The position numbers and the translations under genes were made by a program. From Alphaproteobacteria bacterium (GTDB lineage Bacteria; Pseudomonadota; Alphaproteobacteria; DATDPM01): a stretch of DNA of 36,385 nt. Shown here one piece after another: positions 3,456 to 30,140 of the stretch. Positions within the stretch are counted from its first letter, which is position 1. Every line of letters begins with the position of its first letter. Below the pieces are notes generated by a model. The model did not search any database. It was given only the letters and a program-made list of their open reading frames with translations, and was not told the DNA's origin. The DNA lies in the NCBI GenBank assembly GCA_041479345.1, contig JBGOXX010000003.1, positions 1-36,385 of the forward strand, in the 5' to 3' direction.

Positions 3456-4559
<1,104 letters not shown>

Positions 4560-4780
4560 GCGCGATTTGAAGCCTGCCAATGCTGCAGCGCGCAAAAGCT
4601 TGAAATAGCCGCCGCAGCGCAAGACAAAGTTCAGGCGCGGCAATTCGCCTCAGGATTGATGGCGGCAAGGCGACTCGGAACGGTTGCGCGAGGTCCGGCG
4701 CATGGCTATTAATGCGGGCTTTGTTTTGGGGGCCTTAAGCGGTGGCGACAACCGCGTCGGCCGATGTAGGGCGGGGCAAG

Positions 4781-5950
4781 ATGGATATCCACGAATATCA
4801 AGCGAAGCAACTTCTCGCGAAGTACGGCGTGCCCGTGCCTTTGGGCGATATCGCCTTTAAGGCGCATGAGGCTGAAAACGTCGCCAAGTGGCTCGACGAA
4901 GAATTGATGGTGGTCAAAGCCCAGATCCACGCCGGCGGCCGCGGCAAGGCCGGGGGCGTGAAAGTCGTGCGGTCGGTGGACGAGGCGGTCGACGCCGCCG
5001 ACAAGATGTTCAATATGACGTTGGTCACCCATCAGACCGGACCGAAGGGCCGTCCCGTTCATCGCGTCTATATCGAAGCCGGCGTGTCCTATGATCGCGA
5101 ACTCTATTTCTCAATTCTGAACGACCGCGAAACCGCGGGCATCACCATCATCGCGTCCACCGAAGGCGGCATGGACATCGAAGAGGTGGCGGAGAAATCA
5201 CCCGACAAGATTCTTAAAATTTGCCTCGCCCCGGCCCAAGAGCTGCATCAACACCACGCCCGCAGCCTTTCTTATGATCTCGGCTTGAAGGGCAAGACGG
5301 CGCGAGCGGCGCAAAAAGCGATCCTCAATTGCTTCCGCGCGTTCTACGACCTCGATGCGTCTCTGCTCGAAATCAATCCGCTGGTGGTGACCAAGGCCGG
5401 CGATATCATGGCGCTCGATTGCAAAATGAGTTTTGACGACAACGCGTTGTTCCGTCACCGCGACATCACCGAGCTGCGCGACGACGATGAAATCGATCCG
5501 CTGGAACTCGAAGCGGCGCGTCACGATCTCAACTATGTAAAATTGCCGGGCTCCATCGGCCTGATGGTCAACGGCGCCGGCCTTTCGATGGCGACCATGG
5601 ACATCCTGAAACATTACGGGGGTGCTGCCGCCAATTTCATGGACGTGGCCGGTGCGGCGACGCCCGAACGGGTCGCTGCGGCGTTCAAGCTCGTCTATTC
5701 CGATCCCGACGTGAAGGGAATCTTGCTCAACATCTTCGGCGGCATGATGCGCTGCAATTCGATCGCCGAAGGTCTGGTGAATGCCGCCCGTGAAGTCGGG
5801 CTTAAGAAGCCGCTCGTCGTTCGCCTCGAAGGCACAAATGTCGAGTTGGGGCGTGAAATTCTCGAAAAATCCGGTCTGCCGATTCAGCCTTGCTCTTCGA
5901 TGGACGAAGCGGCGAAGAAGATCGTCGAAGCCGTGAAGAAGGTGGCGTGA
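4781..5950 (+). CDS. Divergent succinate--CoA ligase beta-like subunit (paralogue; substrate unknown)
   Basis: [28 protein letters not shown] and DDNALFRH are present. Substrate loops differ from the canonical copy ([25 protein letters not shown]). Confidence 0.88.
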
Positions 5951-6828
5951 TGTCGGTCCTCATCACGCGCGAATCGAAGATTATTTGCCAGGGCTTCACC
6001 GGAGCCCAGGGCACGTTCCATTCGGAACAGGCGATCAAATATGGCACGAACATGGTGGGCGGCGTTACGCCGGACAAAGGCGGCACCTCGCATTTGAATC
6101 TGCCTGTGTTCAACACCGTGGCGGAAGCGGTGGCGAAGACCGGCGCCAATGCTTCCGGCATTTATGTTCCGCCCCCTTTTGCGGCGGACGCGATTCTCGA
6201 AGCGGTCGATGCCGGCCTCGAACTTGTCGTCTGCATTACCGACGGCATCCCGGTCCGCGATATGCAGCGGGTCAAAGCCGAAATGAAGGGCAAGAAGACC
6301 AGGCTTGTCGGCCCGAATTGCCCGGGCGTCATTTCCCCGGGCATCGGGAAAATCGGAATCATGCCGGGCTACATTCATAAGCCGGGCAAGGTCGGCGTGG
6401 TGTCGCGCTCAGGCACGCTCAGTTACGAAACCGCGGTTCGCACCGGCATCGCGGGGCTCGGTCAATCGACCATTATCGGCATCGGCGGCGACCCGGTGAA
6501 CGGCACCAATTTCGTCGATGCGCTGACGCTTTTCCTCGACGATCCGGACACCGACGCCATTGTGATGATCGGCGAAATCGGCGGCACTGCCGAAGTTGAC
6601 GCCGCCGAATTCATCAAGTCGTGGAAGACGAAGAAAAAGCCGGTGGCGGCTTTCATCGCGGGCGCCGCGGCGCCGCCGGGCAGACGCATGGGTCACGCCG
6701 GCGCCATCGTTTCAGGAGGCAAGGAAACGGCGGACGCCAAAAAAGACGCACTGAAGAGCGCGGGCGTCGCCGTGGCGGAAACTATCGTCGATATCGGCCA
6801 GGCCATGGTCAAGGCCATGAAGGGCTAG
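5950..6828 (+). CDS. Divergent succinate--CoA ligase alpha-like subunit (paralogue)
   Basis: TGATG overlap with the upstream gene. [25 protein letters not shown] and phospho-His motif RMGHAGA. Confidence 0.88.
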
Positions 6829-6864
6829 ATCGCGACGGTCAGATAAAGGGAGGATTTTCACCAC

Positions 6865-7389
6865 ATGGCCGACAATGCGCTCATTTCCTATATCGGTCCC
6901 GATCGAGCGGGCCTGATCTCGAAGATCACCGGACGGCTTTTCGAGATGGGCGGTAGCTTGGGGGATTTGACCTTCGCCGGGCTCGGCGAGGCGGCGGAAC
7001 TCACCATGCTCTATGAAATGCCGAAAGACATGACGATCGATGGGCTGCGGCGTGAGATCGAAGTCTTGCCGGAAGTCCAGGGCGGCGAGTTGCGGGTGAA
7101 GGAAATCCAGGTCAAGACCACGCTGGGCGTTAGCAGCCGCATCACCCACCGAGTCATCCTTTCGGGGGGCGACCGGGCGGGCCTCGTGGCCAAGATCATC
7201 AAAATCATGGACCAGCACGGCGCCCGGGTCATCCGTATGAATGCGGAACGGCTGGCGGGCGCGATGGGCAGTCAATATATCGCCCGATTCGCCATTTCGG
7301 TTCGTGATGAACGTGCCCCCGCTTGTTTGGCCGCGATCGTCAGTTTGGCCGGCGAGCTCAAGCTCACTTTCAGATACGAAACCGCCTGA
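6865..7389 (+). CDS. Tandem ACT-domain protein (GcvR-like amino-acid-binding regulator)
   Basis: Two ACT signatures, ISYIGPDRAGLIS and ILSGGDRAGLVA. GGGAGGA SD upstream. Confidence 0.82.
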   Translation: MADNALISYIGPDRAGLISKITGRLFEMGGSLGDLTFAGLGEAAELTMLYEMPKDMTIDGLRREIEVLPEVQGGELRVKEIQVKTTLGVSSRITHRVILSGGDRAGLVAKIIKIMDQHGARVIRMNAERLAGAMGSQYIARFAISVRDERAPACLAAIVSLAGELKLTFRYETA

Positions 7390-7497
7390 CGGCGGCTGGC
7401 CGATACGAAACCGCCTGACGGCGGCTGGCCGATACGAAACCGCCTGACGGCGGCTGGCCGATACGAAACCGCCTGACGGCGGCTGGCCGATACGAAA
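7373..7497. repeat. Tandem repeat: 4 exact copies of a 29-bp unit plus a degenerate fifth
   Basis: GATACGAAACCGCCTGACGGCGGCTGGCC starts at 7373, 7402, 7431 and 7460; partial copy at 7489. Each unit contains the hairpin CCGCC-TGAC-GGCGG. No spacers. Confidence 0.97.
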
Positions 7498-7667
7498 TCG
7501 CCTCCACGGATGCCGCTATGCGACCGCCAAGCGGCACCGCCACGGCGAAACGGCTTAAAGCGGCATTTCGGCGCCGGATTATAGACGCCACGGGGCTTGC
7601 GCCCGGGCGGTATTTCGGCTTTTGCTAGAGACGCCACAATCTGCTGGCGTCCCAAAACCCGGCGTCG

Positions 7668-8837
7668 ATGAATATCCACGAATATCAGGCTAAACAGCTG
7701 CTCGCCCGTTTCGGCGTGGCGGTGCCGCGCGGCGCCATTGCCTATACGCCGAAGGAAGCCGAGCAAGCCGCCAAGACTCTGGGCGGCAATGTCTGGGTCG
7801 TCAAAGCGCAAATTCACGCCGGCGGTCGCGGCAAGGCCGGGGGCATCAAGGTCGTCAAATCCCTCGCCGACGTGCGCGATGCCGCCAAGGCGTTGCTCGG
7901 CACCAAGCTCGTCACCAAGCAGACGGGGCCCGAGGGCAAAGAAGTCAAACGCGTCTATATCGAAGAAGGCTGCGGCATCGCCAACGAGCTCTATGCCAGC
8001 CTGTTGATCGATCGCGCGACCAGCCGCGTCACCATTCTGGCTTCGGATGCCGGCGGCATGGATATCGAAGAGGTCGCCGCCAAGGAACCGAAACGGCTCA
8101 TCAAGGTTGCGATTGATCCGGCCAGCGGCATTGAACCGTTCCACGCGCGCAAAGTGGTGTTTCATTTAGGCCTTTCGGGAGACGTCGCGGCCCGGGCGAT
8201 CGAGCTTTTGACCGCGCTCTATCTCGCTTTCATGACCTGCGATGCGAGCCTGATCGAGATCAATCCCCTCGTCGTCACCAAGGACGGAAGGGTGCTTGCG
8301 CTCGACGCCAAGATGAATTTCGACGACAACGCGCTATTCCGTCACAAGGAAATCGAAGAGCTTCGCGATGAAGACGAAGAAGATGCGACCGAAACCGAGG
8401 CGGCGCGCAACGGCCTCAATTACGTCAAGCTCGACGGCAATATCGGCTGCATGGTGAATGGCGCCGGTCTTGCCATGGCGACCATGGACACGATCAAGAT
8501 GGCGGGCGGCGACCCCGCGAATTTTCTCGATGTCGGCGGCGGGGCGACCCGCGAGCGCGTCGCGACGGCCTTCAAATTGATCGTGCGCGATCCGAAGGTC
8601 GAAGGAATTATGGTCAATATTTTCGGCGGTATCATGCGCTGCGACGTGATCGCGGAAGGGATCATCGCCGCCATGCGCGAAGTGAATCTCGTGGTGCCAT
8701 TGGTGGTTCGCCTGGAAGGCACCAATGTCGAGCTGGGAAAGGAAATCCTCGCCAAATCGGGTTTGAAAATCATCGCCGCGAATAGCTTGGAAGACGCCGC
8801 GCGCAAAATCGTCAAAGCCGTGCGGAGCGCGGCGTAA
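7668..8837 (+). CDS. sucC: Succinate--CoA ligase [ADP-forming] beta subunit
   Basis: Canonical [34 protein letters not shown] and [10 protein letters not shown] motifs. Confidence 0.96.
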
Positions 8838-9709
8838 TGGCGGTCCTCGTCGACAAAAAGACGAAAGTGATCTGTCAGGGCTTTACCGGGGCCCAAGGCA
8901 CCTTCCATTCCGAACAGGCGATTGCTTACGGCACGAAAATGGTCGGCGGCGTGACGCCGGGCAAAGGCGGCACGAAGCATCTCGATCTCCCGGTTTTCGA
9001 TACGGTCGCCGATGCGGTGGCGAAAACCGGCGCCGATGCCAGCGTCATATATGTGCCGCCGCCTTTTGCCGCCGACGCGATTTTGGAGGCGATCGACGCC
9101 GAGGTGAAACTCGTCGTCTGCATCACCGAAGGTATTCCCGTGCTCGACATGGTCCGTGTGAAACGCGCCTTGCAAGGATCGAAGACCCGCCTTATCGGCC
9201 CCAATTGTCCCGGCATCATCACGCCCGGCGCGTGTAAAATCGGAATCATGCCGGGGCACATCCATAAGCCCGGCCATGTCGGCATCGTCTCGCGCTCCGG
9301 AACGCTCACTTACGAGGCGGTCGCGTACACGACGGCGGCCGGGCTCGGTCAATCGACCTGCATTGGGATCGGCGGGGATCCGGTGAATGGCACCAATTTC
9401 ATCGATTGCCTCGAACTGTTTCTGGCCGATCCCGACACCCGCGGCATCGTGTTGATCGGCGAAATCGGCGGCACCGCCGAAGAGGAAGCCGCGGCCTTTC
9501 TGAAATCAGCGCGCTCCAAAAAGCCGGTGGTTGCCTTCATCGCCGGGCGTACCGCTCCGCCGGGCCGCCGCATGGGTCATGCGGGGGCCATCGTTTCCGG
9601 GGGCAAGGGAAGGGCCGAAGACAAGATCGAAGCCCTGAAAAGTGCCGGTGTTGCGGTTGCCAAGACCCCGGGCGAAACCGCCGCTTTGTTGGCCAAGAAG
9701 CTGAAATAA
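8837..9709 (+). CDS. sucD: Succinate--CoA ligase alpha subunit
   Basis: TAATG overlap with suc[19 protein letters not shown] and RMGHAGA motifs. Confidence 0.96.
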
Positions 9710-24343: not shown

Positions 24344-24754
24344 GTGGCCGACGCCGCCAAGCTTTCCTTCGAACTGGTCTCGCCCGAGCGGCTGCTGTTC
24401 TCGGCCACCGTCGATATGGTGGTGGTACCGGGCAGCGATGGCGATTTCGGCATCCTGCCGGGGCACTCGCTATTCCTGTCCTCGGTGCGCCCCGGCGTCA
24501 TCGATATCTACAATAAGGGCACCGTAACCGACCGCATCTTCATCGCCGGCGGCTTTGCCGAAGCGACCCCCGAGCGCTGCACGGTTCTGGCCGATGCCGC
24601 GATGCCGATTTCCGACCTAAAACGGGAAGAAATTGAGCCGAAACTCAAGGACGCCCGGGAAGACGTCGGGGATGTGGTGGACGAAACTGGCCGCAAAGCC
24701 GCCGAAAAGCGGGTTCTCGTCCTGGAGGCCATGCTGGCCGCCTGCCGGGGATAG
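24344..24754 (+). CDS. atpC: ATP synthase F1 epsilon subunit
   Basis: FELVSPE, GDFGILPGH and GGFAE motifs. AAGGAG SD precedes the GTG start. Confidence 0.95.
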   Translation: MADAAKLSFELVSPERLLFSATVDMVVVPGSDGDFGILPGHSLFLSSVRPGVIDIYNKGTVTDRIFIAGGFAEATPERCTVLADAAMPISDLKREEIEPKLKDAREDVGDVVDETGRKAAEKRVLVLEAMLAACRG

Positions 24755-24769
24755 CCCATTTTCGGAACT

Positions 24770-24797
24770 TTGAAGCCTACCTTCCAGTTTATATAAT
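24770..24797 (+). promoter_or_regulatory. Putative sigma70 promoter of the ferritin-like gene
   Basis: TTGAAG (24770-24775), a 16-nt spacer, then TATAAT (24792-24797). Confidence 0.55.
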
Positions 24798-24822
24798 AGG
24801 CTAAGCCGCTTGGGGGCGGGCC

Positions 24823-25644
24823 ATGAAACATTGGACTCTCGACGATATCGCCTGGGATAAGCTCGACCATTCGAAGGTCGATACCGATGTTCTCGCGGTC
24901 GTGAAGGCCGCGAGTTTGGTCGAGCACAATGGCGGCGATTACGCGACCTATCTTTGCAACGTGTTCGGCGACGATCCCGAATTCCAGCAAGTGGCCCGAG
25001 CCTGGGCGCTGGAAGAAGTTCAGCACGGTCAGGCGCTCGGCAAATGGGCCAGGCTTGCCGATCCCGAATTCGATTTCGACGCCGCCTTCAAACGGTTTAC
25101 CGACGGCTATCGTTTGCCTCTCGAGTCGACACTCTCCGTGCGCGGATCCCGCACCGGCGAGCTTATCGCCCGCTGCATCGTCGAAACCGGAACCAGCTCT
25201 TATTATACCGCCCTCAGCGAAGCGGTGGCGGAGCCGGTGCTGAAGGAAATCTGCCGGCGCATCGCAGCCGATGAACTCCGCCACTACAAGATGTTCTACA
25301 CCTACATGAAGCGTTATCTCGACCGCGAACCGCTCGGGTTTTTTGCCCGGGTGAGGATCGCTCTCGGGCGGGTGTTCGAAAGCGAAGACGACGAACTCCC
25401 TTACGCCTATTTCGCCGCGAACGGCAGCGGCTCTTATGAGCGCCGGCGCGTCGTCCGCGCTTATGTACGCCAAGCTTATGGATACTATCGTCCGCACCAC
25501 GTCGAACGGGCGATGGCCATGATCCTGAAAGCGGTCGGAGCCAATCCCAATGGGTGGCTGGGGCGCGTTCTTTCGGCGCTGTCCTACCGTTTCATGCAAT
25601 ACCGTGTCCGGCGATTGACGCTGGCCGAGACCACTGGCGTCTGA
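24823..25644 (+). CDS. Ferritin-like di-iron carboxylate protein (acyl-ACP desaturase-like fold)
   Basis: Di-iron ligand pattern: SLVE, EEVQH, CIVE, DELRH. Confidence 0.8.
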   Translation: MKHWTLDDIAWDKLDHSKVDTDVLAVVKAASLVEHNGGDYATYLCNVFGDDPEFQQVARAWALEEVQHGQALGKWARLADPEFDFDAAFKRFTDGYRLPLESTLSVRGSRTGELIARCIVETGTSSYYTALSEAVAEPVLKEICRRIAADELRHYKMFYTYMKRYLDREPLGFFARVRIALGRVFESEDDELPYAYFAANGSGSYERRRVVRAYVRQAYGYYRPHHVERAMAMILKAVGANPNGWLGRVLSALSYRFMQYRVRRLTLAETTGV

Positions 25645-25716
25645 GCGTCATTCCTGGAAATTCCGCCCCGGTCCGACCCGATCAATCCTGTCATTGCATC
25701 GTCACTCCCGCGGCCC

Positions 25717-25748
25717 CGTTTCGCGCTAAGGCTCGTTTCGCGCTAAGG
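25717..25748. repeat. 15-bp direct repeat x2 (17-bp period) upstream of the arcE-like gene
   Basis: cgtttcgcgctaagg at 25717-25731 and 25734-25748. Confidence 0.85.
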
Positions 25749-25788
25749 TGAGAGCACCGTTCTGATCGAACGAGTGGGGGATGGGCCC

Positions 25789-27144
25789 ATGACCGGAGCA
25801 AAAGGGCGCCGGCGCATTATCATTCTGGGGGCGGGCGGACGCGACTTTCACAATTTCAACGTCGTCTACCGCAAGGATCCGGGCGTTGAAGTTGTTGCGT
25901 TCACCGCGGCGCAAATCCCTGGCATCGCCGGCCGGATCTATCCGTCCGAGCTCGCCGGCCCGCTTTATCCGCAGGGCATTCCAATCCACGAGGAAAGCGC
26001 GCTCGAGGATCTTTGCCGGCGATTTTCTGTGAACGAAGCGGTGTTCGCCTATAGCGATGTGACGCACGCGACCGTAATGCATCTGGCATCCCGTGTGCTT
26101 GCCGCCGGCGCCGACTTCACCTTGCTTGGGCCCGACCGCACCATGCTTGAATCGGCAAAGCCCGTCATCGCCGTTACCGCGGTGCGCACCGGATGCGGAA
26201 AGTCGCAGGCCGCGCGCTATCTCTCCCGGCGGCTGAGCGGCCGGGGCTTGCACGTTGCCGTGGTGCGGCACCCGATGCCCTACGGCGATCTCGCGCGCGA
26301 ACGGCTGCAGCGCTTCGCAACGTTGGAAGACCTCGCCGTTGCGCGGTGCACGATCGAGGAGCGCGAGGAATACGAGCCGCACATCGCCGCTGGCAACATT
26401 GTCTTCGCCGGGGTCGATTACGCGCAGGTTCTCGCCGCCGCCGAGAGCGAGGCGGACGTCATCCTTTGGGACGGCGGCAACAATGATTTTCCGTTCTTCC
26501 GCCCCGCGCTCCACATCGTGCTCGTCGATGCGCTCCGCCCCGATCAGACGGCAAGTCATCATCCCGGCGAGAGCGTCTTGCGCATGGCGGATATCATCGT
26601 CGTCGCCAAGACTGACGTGGCCGGGCCTGTCGCTACGGAACAGGCCGCCGCCGCCGCGCGCGCCGTCAATGCGCGGGCGCCGATCCTGCGCGCGGCTTCT
26701 CCGATCCGCCTCGATGCGGCGGTTCCGCTTCAAGGCCGCCGTGTTCTCGTCATCGAAGATGGCCCCACCATCACCCACGGCGGCATGGCGTATGGGGCGG
26801 GGTTCATCGCGGCCTCGCGTGCCGGCGCGCAAATCGTCGACCCCCGGCCCTTCGCCGCGCCGCTGATTGCCGAGATCTATGCCCGATATCCCCATATCGG
26901 CGCAGTGCTGCCGGCCGTGGGTTACAGCGAAGCTCAGATAACGGCGCTCGCCCAAACCATTGCGGCAAGCCCGGTCGATGTCGTGGTCGCCGCAACGCCG
27001 ATCGATCTCGCACGACTGATATCCATTGAGAAACCGGTGGTGCGCGCGGTGTATGAGTTCGCCGAGGCGGGCGAGCCGAAGCTTGCCGATCTTCTCGATG
27101 CGTTTCTCGCCCGCGCCGTGCGCCCGCACGAAATCGCCCGATGA
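25789..27144 (+). CDS. arcE: COG2403/CpgS-like P-loop ligase; probable arginine synthetase
   Basis: GAGGRDFHNFN, P-loop AVRTGCGKS, RHPMPYG, TIEEREEYE, WDGGNND and EDGPTITHGG motifs. Directly upstream of carbamate kinase. Alternative GTG start at 25774. Confidence 0.72.
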   Translation: MTGAKGRRRIIILGAGGRDFHNFNVVYRKDPGVEVVAFTAAQIPGIAGRIYPSELAGPLYPQGIPIHEESALEDLCRRFSVNEAVFAYSDVTHATVMHLASRVLAAGADFTLLGPDRTMLESAKPVIAVTAVRTGCGKSQAARYLSRRLSGRGLHVAVVRHPMPYGDLARERLQRFATLEDLAVARCTIEEREEYEPHIAAGNIVFAGVDYAQVLAAAESEADVILWDGGNNDFPFFRPALHIVLVDALRPDQTASHHPGESVLRMADIIVVAKTDVAGPVATEQAAAAARAVNARAPILRAASPIRLDAAVPLQGRRVLVIEDGPTITHGGMAYGAGFIAASRAGAQIVDPRPFAAPLIAEIYARYPHIGAVLPAVGYSEAQITALAQTIAASPVDVVVAATPIDLARLISIEKPVVRAVYEFAEAGEPKLADLLDAFLARAVRPHEIAR

Positions 27145-27164
27145 ACCGCCGCCCGATGAATCGC
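27135..27164. repeat. 15-bp duplication spanning the arcE stop codon
   Basis: cgcccgatgaaccgc / cgcccgatgaatcgc. Confidence 0.8.
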
Positions 27165-27184
27165 CACCTGGGGAGAGATCACTC

Positions 27185-28108
27185 ATGCGCGTTGTGATCG
27201 CGCTCGGCGGAAATGCGCTATTGCGGCGCGGTCAGCCGCTCGAAGCCGATATTCAACAGCGCAATGTCGCTGTTGCGGCGCAGGCCATTGCCGAAGTCGC
27301 GCGCGAAAACGATGTTGTCGTGACTCACGGCAATGGGCCGCAGATCGGCCTCTTGGCGCTCCAAGCCCAGGCCTACAGCAAGGTCCGGCCGTATTCCCTC
27401 GACGTGCTGGGCGCTCAAAGCGAAGGAATGATTGGCTACTTCATCGAGCGGGAGCTCGCGAACCGTTTGCCGCGGCGCGACATCGCAACATTGCTTACCA
27501 CGGTCGAAGTCGATGCCAATGACCCCGCCTTTGCTGCCCCGACCAAGCCGATCGGCCCGGTCTATGCCGAGAGCGAAGCGCGTCAGTTGCGCGATTTTTC
27601 CGGATTTACAATGGCGCGCGATGGTGATGGCTTCCGGCGGGTGGTGCCGTCGCCCGAACCGCGCCGCATCCGCGAACTCGCGGCGATCCGATTGCTGGTC
27701 GAAGCCGGGGTCATCGTGATCTGCGCCGGCGGTGGCGGCATCCCGGTCGTCACAACCCCGGGCGGGGGTTTGCGCGGCGTGGAAGCGGTAATCGACAAAG
27801 ATCTTTCGGCGTCTCTGCTCGCTGTGGAGATAGGCGCCGAGGCCCTGCTGCTTTTGACCGATATCGAATCGGTCGAAACCGGATGGCGCACGCCGGCCGG
27901 CCGCAAGATCCATGAGGCTTCGCCGGAAGCCCTGCGCGGCCAATCCTTCGAAGTGGGAACCATGGCGCCGAAGGTCGAAGCGGCGGTCCGCTTTGTGGAG
28001 CGGACTGGTGGCTTTGCCGGCATCGGCGCGCTAGCGGCCGCGGCCGAAATTCTTCGCGGCGAGGCGGGGACCATCATCCGCGCCGGCACTACGATGACAT
28101 GGTACTGA
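27185..28108 (+). CDS. arcC: Carbamate kinase
   Basis: VIALGGNAL, THGNGPQIG, PTKPIGP, RRVVPSP.P, GGGGIPV, EAVIDKD and GTMAPKV motifs. GGGGAG SD. Confidence 0.95.
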   Translation: MRVVIALGGNALLRRGQPLEADIQQRNVAVAAQAIAEVARENDVVVTHGNGPQIGLLALQAQAYSKVRPYSLDVLGAQSEGMIGYFIERELANRLPRRDIATLLTTVEVDANDPAFAAPTKPIGPVYAESEARQLRDFSGFTMARDGDGFRRVVPSPEPRRIRELAAIRLLVEAGVIVICAGGGGIPVVTTPGGGLRGVEAVIDKDLSASLLAVEIGAEALLLLTDIESVETGWRTPAGRKIHEASPEALRGQSFEVGTMAPKVEAAVRFVERTGGFAGIGALAAAAEILRGEAGTIIRAGTTMTWY

Positions 28109-28116
28109 CGGCTGCT

Positions 28117-28614
28117 TCAGTGCCGCTTGGCGGCGTCGATCAGCGGCCCGAACTCGGCGACCAAATCCCCATAGAGCTTGCGCTTGAAGGGGACGATGAG
28201 GCGGGGAAGCGCCGCAACCTTCGCCCATTTCCAATCGAGAAATTCCGGATGCTCGGTTTCGATATCGATGTCGGAATCTTTGCCCGTGAAGCGCAGCAAA
28301 AACCATTTCTGGGTTTGGCCGCGAAAGCGCCCGCCCCAGATTTTCGGAATCAAATCGGCGGGCAGATCGTAAGTCAGCCAGTTCTTGCTTTCGGCCACGA
28401 TCTTGGCTTTGTCGGTGCCGATCTCTTCTTGCAGTTCGCGCAGGGCCGCTTCCCGGGGGCTTTCGCCTTCGTCGATCCCGCCCTGGGGCATTTGCCAGGC
28501 TTGGCTCGGCGTGTCGATGCGGCGTGCAACGAATACCAGGTCCGCAGCATTGACGAGCATGATCCCGACACCCTTGCGATAGGGACGTTCGGTAATCGTC
28601 GAGTTTCGCGTCAC
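28117..28614 (-). CDS. rppH: RNA pyrophosphohydrolase (Nudix)
   Basis: YRKGVG, WQMPQGG, Nudix box GGIDEGESPREAALRELQEEIG, GQTQKWF and IVPFKRKLY. Confidence 0.93.
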   Translation of the reverse strand: MTRNSTITERPYRKGVGIMLVNAADLVFVARRIDTPSQAWQMPQGGIDEGESPREAALRELQEEIGTDKAKIVAESKNWLTYDLPADLIPKIWGGRFRGQTQKWFLLRFTGKDSDIDIETEHPEFLDWKWAKVAALPRLIVPFKRKLYGDLVAEFGPLIDAAKRH

Positions 28615-30140
28615 TTTGCGATCTGCTTATTGACCAGGGCGGAAACCGGTGCGATGGCGAAGCCGCGTTGCTCCGCTTTCGGCACCCAAGCGGCGACGCG
28701 TTCCATGGTCACCGGATAGGCCGTTCCCATCGCCACCGCAAAACCGGTTTTCTTGGCAAGTTTTTCAACCTCATCCAATTCGCCGTCGATCGCATCGCGC
28801 GACGCCTCGGCATCGATGAAACGGCTGTTGAAGGTGGTCGGCATGCCCATATCGCTCGCCATTTTGGCGGCGATGCTTTGGTCGGAGGACCGGCTGTCGA
28901 GGAAAAGAAGCCCGCGCGCCTTGATCGCATCGAGCACCGGTTTCAGATCGGGGCCGGAGGTGGTGAAGCGCGAACCCATGTGATTGGTGACACCGACATA
29001 GCCGGTGGTGCGGCTCAGCAGCCATTGCATCTTGAACAAATTCTGACGGGGATCGATCGAGGTCAGCAGCGTGTAGGGGCCTGGATCCTGTTCGGGATAA
29101 TCGATCGGCTCCATCGGCAGGTCCATCAAGACTTCGTGGCCGGCGGCGCGCGCAAGATTGGTCCATTGATCGAGGCCCTTCGCGTAAGGCGAGAAAGCGA
29201 GGCTGACGCTTCCCGGAAGCTGCTGAATCGCGGTTTCGGTTGCAGCACCGGAAAGCCCGAGATCGGTAATGACGACGGCAATTCGCGGCCGCTTGTCGGT
29301 CTGATCGAAGGGCCGCGCATAAACCTGCCACGGTTCGCGCCCATCGGGCCCGATGATGGGGAGCGGTCCCTCGCGCCCGTGTTCGACCAGATTGGGATCG
29401 GGAGCCGGGGAAAGCTTGGGTTCGGGGAGGGCAGCGACCTGAGTTTTCTCCGGAGTCGGCTTTTCCGGCGCCGCCTCTTTCGCTTTTGCCGGTTCGGGTT
29501 CCGCTTTGGCCATTTCTTTTGGCTTCTCGGGCGGTTTTTCCGCCGCTTTTTCGGCGGTGTGTTTTTCAGGCTTCGCTTCGGGTGGTTTCACCTCAGCGGG
29601 TTTGGATTCCGCCGCCTTGGTTTCGGCCGGCTTTGCTTCGGGCGCCTTCGATTCAAGCGCCTTCGCTTCGGATTCGGGGGGCTTGGCTTCTTTGGCCGCG
29701 GTTTCGCCAGATGGCGTTTCGACTTTCGGCGCTTCGACCTTGGCTGGTTCGGGCTTTGGAGGTTCCGGTACGGATGCTTCGGCCTTGGGCGGTTCCTGCG
29801 GGGTTTCCGGCTTTGCCGCTTCCGCGGGCGGCGTTTCGGATTGCGGCCCCGCTGGTGGAGTAGCCGCTGGCGGCGGTCCGGGCACTGGGGCTTGGGCTTC
29901 CGGTGGTGTTGCCGCTGCCGGTGCCGGCGGCATTTGCTCGGGGGCCTGCGCGGTTTGCTTGGGCGCTGCCGGCGGTATCGGCGCCACGATACCTGGCACG
30001 GCGGCGGTGGCGCCGGGACCGCCCGGCTCTCCATAGAAGTAGAGCCAGGTTACGGTCCCGGATACCAATGCGAATAGGATCAGCCAGGCGACAAGAAGAA
30101 GACCGCCCGAACTCCCGCCCTCTTTATCCCTCGTCCTCAC
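28611..30140 (-). CDS. Divergent polysaccharide deacetylase (YibQ-like) with an N-terminal TM helix and a long P/E/A/K linker
   Basis: IAVVITDLG, GHEVLMDLPMEP, NHMGSRFT and FLDSRS motifs. Lies downstream of ctpA. Confidence 0.88.
   Translation of the reverse strand: MRTRDKEGGSSGGLLLVAWLILFALVSGTVTWLYFYGEPGGPGATAAVPGIVAPIPPAAPKQTAQAPEQMPPAPAAATPPEAQAPVPGPPPAATPPAGPQSETPPAEAAKPETPQEPPKAEASVPEPPKPEPAKVEAPKVETPSGETAAKEAKPPESEAKALESKAPEAKPAETKAAESKPAEVKPPEAKPEKHTAEKAAEKPPEKPKEMAKAEPEPAKAKEAAPEKPTPEKTQVAALPEPKLSPAPDPNLVEHGREGPLPIIGPDGREPWQVYARPFDQTDKRPRIAVVITDLGLSGAATETAIQQLPGSVSLAFSPYAKGLDQWTNLARAAGHEVLMDLPMEPIDYPEQDPGPYTLLTSIDPRQNLFKMQWLLSRTTGYVGVTNHMGSRFTTSGPDLKPVLDAIKARGLLFLDSRSSDQSIAAKMASDMGMPTTFNSRFIDAEASRDAIDGELDEVEKLAKKTGFAVAMGTAYPVTMERVAAWVPKAEQRGFAIAPVSALVNKQIAK

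Follow-up and report, generated by a model that had tools for sequence, protein, structure and literature searches.

We analyzed a 36,385-nucleotide stretch of an alphaproteobacterial genome (contig JBGOXX010000003.1 of assembly GCA_041479345.1; hereafter the window, meaning the whole stretch), which carries two tandem pairs of genes for the subunits of succinyl-CoA synthetase (SCS) or a close relative. SCS is a textbook enzyme, and genes for its paralogues routinely receive the annotation 'SucCD'. The first pair, here called sucC2 and sucD2, is followed by a gene for a small protein with two ACT domains, and this three-gene cassette lies between the malate dehydrogenase gene mdh and the canonical sucCD. 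The genes concerned are as follows:

3597..4559, plus strand: mdh, malate dehydrogenase (NCBIfam NF004863, 468 bits; match from residue 40 of the open reading frame (ORF) 3480-4559)
4781..5950, plus strand: sucC2, beta (ATP-grasp) subunit of a predicted paralogous ADP-forming dicarboxylate-CoA ligase, 389 aa from the translation
5950..6828, plus strand: sucD2, alpha (CoA-binding, phosphohistidine) subunit of the same enzyme, 292 aa from the translation
6829..6864, plus strand: 36-bp spacer between sucD2 and the ACT gene, with a Shine-Dalgarno-like AAAGGGAGG
6865..7389, plus strand: ACT gene, 174 aa, two ACT domains (GcvR-like / 'amino acid-binding protein' family)
7668-8837 and 8837-9709, plus strand: canonical sucC and sucD, which group with other alphaproteobacterial SucCD and are followed by sucA, sucB and lpd

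Further out, sdhB, a methyltransferase gene, nadA, nadC and mdh lie 5' of sucC2 in this order, and lpd is followed by xerC (minus strand), priA and atpHAGD.

Conservation and linkage of the cassette

The initial annotation of the window had described two complete pairs in tandem, the first with its own upstream region of about 220 bp, and this is borne out by the sequence, in which 221 bp separate the end of mdh at 4559 from the start of sucC2. The coupling of the two genes is likewise as described, the TGA stop codon of sucC2 and the ATG of sucD2 overlapping as TGATG at 5947-5951, as is the 36-bp gap before the gene for the two-ACT protein. The first and second pairs are 60% (beta) and 73% (alpha) identical to each other. 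They are the only SucC-like genes in the source assembly (2.32 Mb in 230 contigs, 94% complete), which has one ACT gene of this kind.

The ratio of nonsynonymous to synonymous substitution rates (dN/dS) against four related loci was 0.08-0.15 for sucC2 and sucD2 and 0.12-0.24 for the ACT gene, near the values of the canonical pair, and all five genes (sucC2, sucD2, ACT, sucC and sucD) are under purifying selection. These ratios ruled out decay of the cassette and, with the ATP-grasp, CoA-binding and RMGHAGA motifs all retained, agree with the annotation's view that the pair is not decaying. An exception was seen in a genome of the same genus (G001:C3:5108-6270, locus L027), where sucC2 is split into two overlapping frames (residues 1-196 and 179-388), reflecting either a frameshift or an error in assembly. 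A recent origin of the cassette by insertion or horizontal transfer was also ruled out, based on a GC content like that of the flanks, on synteny across families and on the nesting of the pair beside the carriers' own canonical pairs (see below). The annotation had called the cassette inserted between mdh and the canonical sucCD; the location is correct, but the arrangement is old and conserved rather than the result of a recent insertion.

To follow the cassette through other genomes, we used a pattern scan derived from an alignment of the ACT protein and covering one genome per species (185,579 species), which returned 65 loci that were compared with the window proteins by tblastn. In each of the 39 loci whose ACT relative was at least 43% identical, sucC2 and sucD2 lay directly upstream of it. 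In the other 26 loci the ACT relatives were only 36-46% identical, no SCS gene lay within 10 kb, and no shared neighborhood was seen. Eight loci (type A, L024-L031) shared the full gene order of the window, sdhB, nadA, nadC, mdh, sucC2, sucD2, ACT, sucC, sucD, sucA, sucB, lpd, xerC. A second group of 31 loci (type B, L032-L061 and L075), mostly from marine single-cell and metagenome genomes, had no second sucCD and no sucAB-lpd; in 28 of the 31 the order was sdhB, nadA, nadC, mdh, sucC2, sucD2, ACT and then directly xerC and/or priA. The marine family f9, to which loci L032-L061 belong, consists of Alphaproteobacteria with genomes of 1-2 Mb (e.g., G013, G197, G339 and G366), and the 98% complete genome G013 has one SucC-like gene, of the SucC2 type (G013 and G197 gave one match each in a class-wide scan). 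Based on these gene orders and on the single SucC-like gene, type B corresponds to type A without the sucCD-sucAB-lpd block, and SucC2D2 is the only enzyme of its family found in f9 (two genomes checked).

A DNA pattern for the SucC2 motif FGGMMRCN matched 17 of 401 class-level genomes and added five further loci, the new matches coming from families f61, f69, f180 and f219 and all having the order mdh-sucC2-sucD2-ACT. Together with f1, f9 and f18 (f9 and f18 were placed outside the window's own family and are listed at class level only), the cassette is thus found in at least seven alphaproteobacterial families, and the ACT gene adjoins the pair in 44 of 44 loci, at a distance of about 8-36 bp (only about 8-25 bp in the marine loci). 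The mdh gene is upstream of sucC2 in nearly all cassette loci, six of the seven carrier families also keep a canonical sucCD, and the cassette is retained in streamlined genomes of 1.1-1.7 Mb. The co-occurrence of the three genes, which the initial annotation had proposed to examine, is therefore strict, in the 39 loci of the scan as in the five added ones. Together, these data indicate that sucC2-sucD2-ACT is one operon and a real, old and conserved three-gene unit.

A solo gene of the sucC2 type was seen in another genome of the window's genus (locus L162, G003:C15, 1279-4876). It is a third beta gene in that genome and 84% identical to the sucC2 of the window; no alpha gene comes after it, and a gene for a 714-aa acyl-CoA dehydrogenase follows. 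It may derive from a contaminating relative (contamination of this genome is 2%).

Two further features flank the cassette in the window:

4560..4780, plus strand: upstream region of sucC2, 221 bp, with a conserved box at about 4683-4727
7373..7503, plus strand: 29-bp tandem repeat, 4.5 copies (TRF score 255, 99% matches)

The upstream box reads GTTGCGC-N17-CTATTAATGCGGGCTTTGTTTT and is conserved in five of seven aligned loci. A part of it (4699-4716) was flagged as terminator-like, and a promoter scan found no sigma-70 consensus on the plus strand upstream of sucC2. The box may be the terminator hairpin of mdh or a promoter-like element, and under either reading it divides the cassette from mdh. 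An Rfam scan of 4400-7800 gave nothing over threshold, its sole match being a sub-threshold sRNA (25 bits against a gathering score of 81). The unit of the downstream repeat duplicates the last five codons and the stop codon of the ACT gene, together with a short hairpin (CCGCC-TGAC-GGCGG), and hairpins were present in the predicted fold. Since the repeat is absent from the same-genus locus L024, it represents a recent, strain-specific expansion. In three related loci (L028 7412-7560, L030 7470-7700 and L029 7393-7500) the region downstream of mdh is rich in AAG, GCG and GCC repeats and looks like either a C-terminal extension of Mdh rich in Lys and Ala or a small basic ORF in its own right. 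Elsewhere in the window, four long minus-strand ORFs at 24508-30140 (363, 486, 241 and 509 aa) had no NCBIfam match at 1e-5, and the AT skew is strongly negative (-0.39) in the 29-30 kb bin.

Ancestry and active site of SucC2D2

Both subunits passed the NCBIfam equivalog cut-offs for SCS, SucC2 with 539.2 bits for NF001913 (cut-off 370) and SucD2 with 437.7 bits for NF004230 (cut-off 336), as did the canonical pair. The nearest solved structures were those of the Escherichia coli SCS (E 5e-114 and 3e-116). Membership of the citryl-CoA synthetase (CcsAB) or ACL family was ruled out, as the match to 6hxq was far poorer (E 1.9e-34 for beta and 9.3e-42 for alpha, versus about 1e-114 for the E. coli enzyme). 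These similarities speak for one explanation of the locus, that SucC2D2 is a regulated isozyme of ordinary SCS in which changes in the active site tune kinetics or regulation and not the choice of substrate. On all the evidence presented here we consider this explanation a serious one, while leaning toward doubting it.

The position of the pair in phylogenetic trees bears on the same question. In quick single-gene trees SucC2 and SucD2 each formed one clade with a long stem, of length 0.63 and 0.47 respectively; both clades lay within the alphaproteobacterial SucC or SucD sequences and away from the malate thiokinase subunits MtkA and MtkB. However, trees that were constrained to unite the SucC2 or SucD2 clade with Mtk had log-likelihoods 12.7 and 23.5 higher than the quick trees (p-AU 0.67 and 0.76), which indicated that the latter were under-searched, and we therefore relied on a careful IQ-TREE search with the concatenated beta and alpha subunits of 43 operon pairs (680 columns; support is given as ultrafast bootstrap / SH-aLRT). 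In this tree the SucC2D2 clade had support of 100/100 and was joined in turn by a pair from family f37 (100/99), by one further alphaproteobacterial pair, L116 (97/84), and by the canonical pairs from f1 and f69, two of the lineages that carry the cassette (98/92). The alphaproteobacterial clade without MtkAB was supported with 99/100 and the MtkAB clade with 100/100. Forcing SucC2D2 and the f37 pair to group with MtkAB made the tree worse by 9.07 log-likelihood units, a difference that did not reject this grouping (p-AU 0.307).

Based on the concatenated tree, the best reading is that SucC2D2 arose as an ancient duplicate of the lineage's own sucCD and then underwent accelerated change, and a position of SucC2D2 as sister to MtkAB is the other placement compatible with the test (p-AU 0.31). 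The initial annotation had suggested a phylogeny against SucCD, MtkAB and CcsAB as a check on its proposal of a separate ligase. On the one hand, SucC2D2 was found to be far nearer to SucCD than to CcsAB, to lie inside SucCD in the best tree and to score below the MtkA cut-off, all of which speaks against that proposal; on the other hand, the MtkAB sister position was not rejected. The nesting of SucC2D2 in alphaproteobacterial SucCD again fits an SCS isozyme. The retention of the canonical sucCD in six of the seven carrier families does not, and argues for distinct roles of the two pairs.

The residues of the catalytic machinery are kept in SucC2D2, namely RMGHAGA, GEIGG and PNCPG in SucD2 (with Glu209-alpha and Cys124-alpha) and Glu197-beta in SucC2, and are invariant or nearly so in the alignments of both proteins. 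We take their roles from the E. coli literature, where the phosphohistidine would be His246-alpha and the further residues Glu208-alpha, Cys123-alpha (E. coli numbering) and Glu197-beta. To define what sets the clade apart, 20 SucC2 were compared with 62 canonical SucC, and 40 SucD2 with 58 canonical SucD, the canonical sets being drawn from Alphaproteobacteria and other Pseudomonadota (three proteobacterial classes). Five MtkAB pairs, recognized by more than 625 bits for the malate-CoA ligase model NF010647, were included in the comparison. SucC2 numbering equals E. coli beta numbering, as the two align one to one; alpha positions follow SucD2.

Seven beta residues that are invariant or nearly so in canonical SucC are replaced in SucC2. 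The replacements C261L, A269S and I322M were found in 20 of 20 SucC2, G290A and D326N in 19 of 20 and P283A in 18 of 20, in each case against a canonical residue in 62 of 62 SucC, and G292A was found in 20 of 20 against a canonical residue in 59 of 62. With the further clade markers G40E, L306Y and V343K, the signature of the SucC2 clade is E40 L261 S269 A283 A290 A292 Y306 M322 N326 K343. In the alpha subunit E98D, T158S and T240A each separated all 40 SucD2 from all 58 canonical SucD, and V162A was present in 37 of 40 (canonical V in 58 of 58). Additional changes (C133G, G259E, V70G and P279I) contribute to the SucD2 signature, G70 D98 G133 S158 A162 V163 A233 A240 E259 I279. The site-I motif of SucCD is accordingly replaced in 36-40 of 40 (alpha) or 18-20 of 20 (beta) members of the clade. 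From the E. coli and pig SCS structures, we assume that the beta segments NGAGLAM, DVGGGA and FGGI-RCD and the alpha segment ITEGIP line the place where the CoA thiol, the carboxylate substrate and the phosphohistidine meet. Judged from the alignments, this site is remodelled in SucC2D2, with the catalytic machinery (ATP-grasp, phosphohistidine loop, catalytic glutamates and CoA site) intact.

Eleven replacements (seven beta, four alpha) at positions (near-)invariant in 58-62 canonical enzymes would not be expected of an ordinary SCS, and neither would the resemblance of the alpha changes to those of MtkB. D98, A162 and E259 are common to SucD2 and all five MtkB, which are also changed at 133, 158 and 256. 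Among the 120 alpha columns that are at least 95% invariant in canonical SucD, six are changed in SucD2 and 17 in MtkB, and four of these coincide (hypergeometric P 0.0036; the overlap at E259 lies at a further, less invariant column). In the beta subunit none coincided (11 versus 8 changed columns), the MtkA changes at 262, 289 and 320 adjoining the SucC2 changes at 261, 290 and 322.

The f37 pair that is nearest to SucC2D2 in the concatenated tree was likewise matched by the FGGMMRCN pattern; it was found in three genomes of one genus (G041, G217 and G413) and has no adjacent ACT gene. It carries a part of the signature (beta A290, A292, M322 and N326; alpha D98, S158, A162, A240 and E259). 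In all three genomes (loci L157 (G041:C16, 3779-9050), L164 and L165) it is followed by a gene for a 1032-aa protein resembling phosphoenolpyruvate carboxylase (PEPC), the match being weak (Pfam PEPcase, 72 bits over residues 158-638). The partial signature and the PEPC-like neighbor of this ACT-less pair suggest that remodelling of the core preceded recruitment of the ACT gene and that the ancestral context may already have been C4-acid metabolism. This neighbor and the mdh gene upstream of sucC2 recall the serine-cycle order PEPC-Mdh-Mtk-Mcl1 given in a passage of PMC2948502.

The tandem-ACT protein

In the ACT protein Pfam recognized an ACT_6 domain (residues 6-76) and, weakly, another ACT domain (96-131). 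An AlphaFold2 model (17-sequence alignment, pLDDT 86.1) consisted of two beta-alpha-beta-beta-alpha-beta units. The best Foldseek matches to this model were 2nyi, a protein of unknown function (TM 0.73), the ACT pair with which Mycobacterium avium SerB2 binds serine (0.67) and 1u8s, a putative GcvR (0.62-0.65), the regulatory subunits of aspartate kinase and acetohydroxyacid synthase (AHAS) being much poorer structural matches. Profile similarity to 1u8s was weak (E 1.2e-4). Public names of its relatives are 'ACT domain-containing protein' or 'glycine cleavage system transcriptional repressor', the latter being JGI names after the glycine-sensing GcvR, and a protein atlas placed the window protein in 'amino acid-binding protein' and GcvR-family clusters. 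Its length and its two stand-alone ACT domains match GcvR (about 170-190 aa). Two invariant motifs, ITHR and, at the C-terminus, RYET(A/S), are peculiar to the ACT clade that is linked to SCS.

Whether the ACT protein is a subunit of the enzyme is a question separate from that of the substrate. It could instead be a GcvR-type transcriptional co-regulator acting via a LysR-type partner, or a metabolite-binding protein that is co-transcribed for dosage, the enzyme working without it. This would be in keeping with the GcvR-like fold and naming, with the more distant homologues in unrelated contexts and with the ACT-less f37 pair, which shows that the enzyme can exist alone; in addition, a search for longer forms found no ACT domain fused to a protein of SucC or SucD length, which is weak evidence. 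Such a separate role is rather unlikely in our view, given the adjacency of the ACT gene in all 44 loci across at least seven families with their short spacers, its retention in streamlined genomes and the invariant motifs peculiar to the SCS-linked clade.

A predicted contact between the proteins points in the same direction, though weakly. When SucC2, SucD2 and the ACT protein, the last as the scored partner, were modelled as a complex from our own alignments, an ipSAE of 0.34 was obtained (0.01, 0.40 and 0.34 in the individual runs), over all three controls, the best of which scored 0.00; runs shared at least 17% of contacts, and the partner pLDDT was at least 81. The mark used had let through 58 of 80 solved complexes and 2 of 110 mismatched pairs; only 7 of the 80 solved complexes got through with a score at 0.60 or under, yet both of the passing mismatches did. 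The prediction therefore lends weak support, raising the odds of direct ACT-SucC2D2 binding slightly. The 'dedicated regulatory subunit' of the initial annotation thus stands as far as strict linkage is concerned, and its binding and regulatory role is a weakly supported prediction.

Metabolic setting, proposed function and comparison with known systems

The metabolic context of the cassette was sought in the genomes that carry it. Crotonyl-CoA carboxylase/reductase (Ccr), the marker of the ethylmalonyl-CoA pathway, was over cut-off in 16 of 16 carriers from eight families, compared with 47 of 151 genomes in a class-wide sample that includes seven carriers. An ecm-like gene for a second mutase lay divergently beside ccr, methylmalonyl-CoA mutase (Mcm) was present, and an orthologue of the malyl-CoA lyase Mcl1 was found between xerD and accA in every carrier checked. 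G000 and four f9 genomes yielded no isocitrate lyase and no malate synthase A or G. These genes (Ccr, an Ecm-type mutase, Mcm and Mcl1, with no isocitrate lyase found) indicate the ethylmalonyl-CoA pathway. The end products of this pathway are succinyl-CoA and malyl-CoA, and malyl-CoA is hydrolysed by the thioesterase Mcl2. Type-A genomes also have a gene of about 300 codons related to CitE/CLYBL/Mcl2. In a genome of family f18 (G022:C105:36835-37479), a CitE/Mcl2-like HpcH gene lies on the same contig as the cassette, about 9 kb upstream and before the sdh genes, a position that we take to be similar to that of mcl2 in Rhodobacter sphaeroides.

The marine family f9 has Ccr, two acyl-CoA mutases and Mcl1. 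Among 16 f9 genomes that were at least 85% complete, ten had exactly one HpcH-family gene, of the Mcl1 type; in the other six, one had the gene split over two contigs, one (5% contamination) had three matches, one had a weak partial match and three had none. The HpcH gene of G013 is an Mcl1 orthologue (PDB 5ugr, E 6e-145; 4l9y, E 1.6e-109), and no thioesterase paralogue of the Mcl2 type was found in the f9 genomes checked. Family f9 therefore has an enzyme that makes malyl-CoA and, in the genomes checked, no known route from it to malate other than the thiokinase-like SucC2D2, whose genes are beside mdh. The E1 component of 2-oxoglutarate dehydrogenase was over cut-off in none of 41 f9 genomes (nine of them at least 90% complete with at most 5% contamination), and four f9 genomes gave no match for 2-oxoacid:ferredoxin oxidoreductase. 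The genes found in f9 account for no link between 2-oxoglutarate and succinate. The succinyl-CoA users ALA synthase and DapD were present in both f9 genomes checked and the producer Mcm in all four checked. With SucC2 as the sole SucC-like gene found, SucC2D2 has probably kept succinate activity.

Based on these findings, we tentatively propose, as the best of the readings considered but short of regarding it as probable, that SucC2D2-ACT is an ADP-forming malyl-/succinyl-CoA thiokinase that serves the ethylmalonyl-CoA pathway and has an ACT sensor as its partner. SucC2D2 would use ADP/ATP to interconvert C4-dicarboxylyl-CoA esters and their free acids, its substrates being both (S)-malyl-CoA/malate and succinyl-CoA/succinate. 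These bacteria have the ethylmalonyl-CoA pathway and are negative for isocitrate lyase and malate synthase, and in them SucC2D2 would convert the two end products of the pathway to free malate, next to Mdh, and free succinate, with the thioester energy kept as ATP; in reverse, it would make malyl-CoA or succinyl-CoA. The two-ACT protein would bind a small metabolite, for which glycine, a glyoxylate-derived compound or another amino acid are candidates, and would modulate SucC2D2, probably by direct contact.

Several observations weigh against this proposal. SucC2D2 passes the SucC and SucD equivalog cut-offs, and for NF010647 SucC2 (517.7 bits) scores lower than canonical SucC (582.5 bits), both being below the cut-off of 604, a threshold that only 9 of the 301 genomes scanned in the class exceeded, with no carrier among them. 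The concatenated tree puts SucC2D2 inside alphaproteobacterial SucCD, beside the canonical pairs of the same lineages (98/92), and not with MtkAB. MtkA keeps the canonical residue at all seven beta positions changed in SucC2, so the remodelling of the beta subunit does not resemble that of Mtk. Substrate contacts of the changed residues are assumed from the E. coli and pig SCS structures. The count of 16 of 16 for Ccr overstates independence, because the carrier families may be related, and type-A genomes have no hole in the pathway, as they possess the CitE/Mcl2-like gene. The complex score belongs to a weak class, in which predictions are wrong more often than right except where the contact was already likely. 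Finally, SucC2 is the sole SucC-like gene found in f9 (two genomes checked), whereas ALA synthase and DapD need succinyl-CoA, which fits a plain SCS.

This last point leads back to the isozyme explanation introduced above. In a family where neither the dehydrogenase E1 (0 of 41) nor the ferredoxin oxidoreductase (four genomes) was found, an ordinary SCS might be used to form succinyl-CoA (anabolic use) or to handle the succinyl-CoA from Mcm. The ACT protein, whose JGI name follows the glycine-sensing GcvR, might then, as an allosteric regulator, couple succinyl-CoA supply to an amino acid, for instance glycine, which ALA synthase uses as co-substrate. An SCS isozyme would leave the strict association with Ccr unexplained.

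A substrate other than malyl-CoA or succinyl-CoA was also considered. As a salvage or proof-reading thiokinase, SucC2D2 might activate or deactivate some other dicarboxylate with a link to the ethylmalonyl-CoA pathway or its side reactions, for example methylsuccinate, mesaconate, beta-methylmalate, ethylmalonate, methylmalonate, itaconate or citramalate. The remodelled acyl site, the association with Ccr and Ecm, the CitE/RipC-like lyases of type-A genomes and the acyl-CoA dehydrogenase gene adjoining the solo sucC2 of G003 are compatible with such a role. We nevertheless judge it distinctly improbable, since in none of the 44 loci is the cassette linked to a gene for a hydratase, lyase or dehydrogenase that would act on such an acid, the constant neighbor being mdh, and f9 has only one HpcH-family lyase. 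The initial annotation had proposed a ligase for a non-succinate acid; a distinct, conserved paralogue with replaced site residues is what we found, and a non-succinate substrate is not established.

Returning to the proposed malyl-/succinyl-CoA thiokinase, a more far-reaching form of it can be outlined, which we think unlikely as a whole. SucC2D2-ACT would be a three-protein, ATP-conserving malyl-CoA/succinyl-CoA thiokinase that replaces malyl-CoA thioesterase as the last step of the ethylmalonyl-CoA pathway, would constitute with Mcl1 an 'ATP-yielding malate synthase' and would be switched in direction or activity by a metabolite through its tandem-ACT subunit (glycine or a glyoxylate-derived signal being candidates). 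In f9, an abundant marine family that would have lost 2-oxoglutarate dehydrogenase and the canonical SCS, it would be the only link between the pools of C4 CoA esters and free acids.

These results describe a coherent clade of paralogues in at least seven alphaproteobacterial families, which has a remodelled active site, is linked to an ACT sensor protein and tracks the ethylmalonyl-CoA pathway. If malyl-CoA is handled by SucC2D2, the enzyme would fill a hole in the carbon metabolism of f9, a marine lineage with streamlined genomes, and would provide metabolic engineering with a malate thiokinase that is regulated by nature, the Mtk enzymes now in use being known to limit synthetic serine-cycle and malyl-CoA pathways. 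Should SucC2D2 be a regulated SCS only, it would still be the first SCS reported with an ACT-type allosteric partner, as far as our literature search shows, in which no paper linking an SCS with an ACT protein was found.

Among known systems, the closest is SucCD itself (E. coli 1SCU/2SCU/1JKJ; NF001913 and NF004230), with which SucC2D2 has in common the two-subunit architecture, the domain order and the length. It differs from SucCD in being followed by the ACT gene and not by sucAB, in coexisting with a canonical pair in most carrier families and in its clade-wide replacements, among others in the beta FGGI-RCD and alpha AGRTAPP motif regions. The tandem-ACT modules (GcvR, the N-terminus of SerB2 and the small subunits of AHAS and aspartate kinase) resemble the ACT protein in a size of about 175-190 aa and in consisting of two ACT domains and nothing else. 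Unlike GcvR, the ACT protein has an enzyme operon as its genomic partner, not gcvTHP or gcvA, and invariant motifs of its own.

MtkAB (NF010647), which includes the Methylococcus capsulatus 'SucCD-2' named as a malate thiokinase in a passage of PMC5964204, is similarly an SCS paralogue of organisms with malyl-CoA lyase. Its likeness to SucC2D2 extends to alpha D98, A162 and E259 and to four of the six changed invariant alpha positions, and mdh adjoins SucC2D2. There is, however, no serine-cycle gene cluster around SucC2D2, and no ACT partner accompanied Mtk in the five loci compared, without an in-depth look. By analogy, the role proposed for SucC2D2 would be the same step, malyl-CoA to malate, as that of the malyl-CoA thioesterase Mcl2 of R. 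sphaeroides and Methylobacterium extorquens. Mcl2 has an unrelated fold and is a hydrolase that wastes the thioester bond, whereas the proposed SucC2D2 reaction would save it as ATP.

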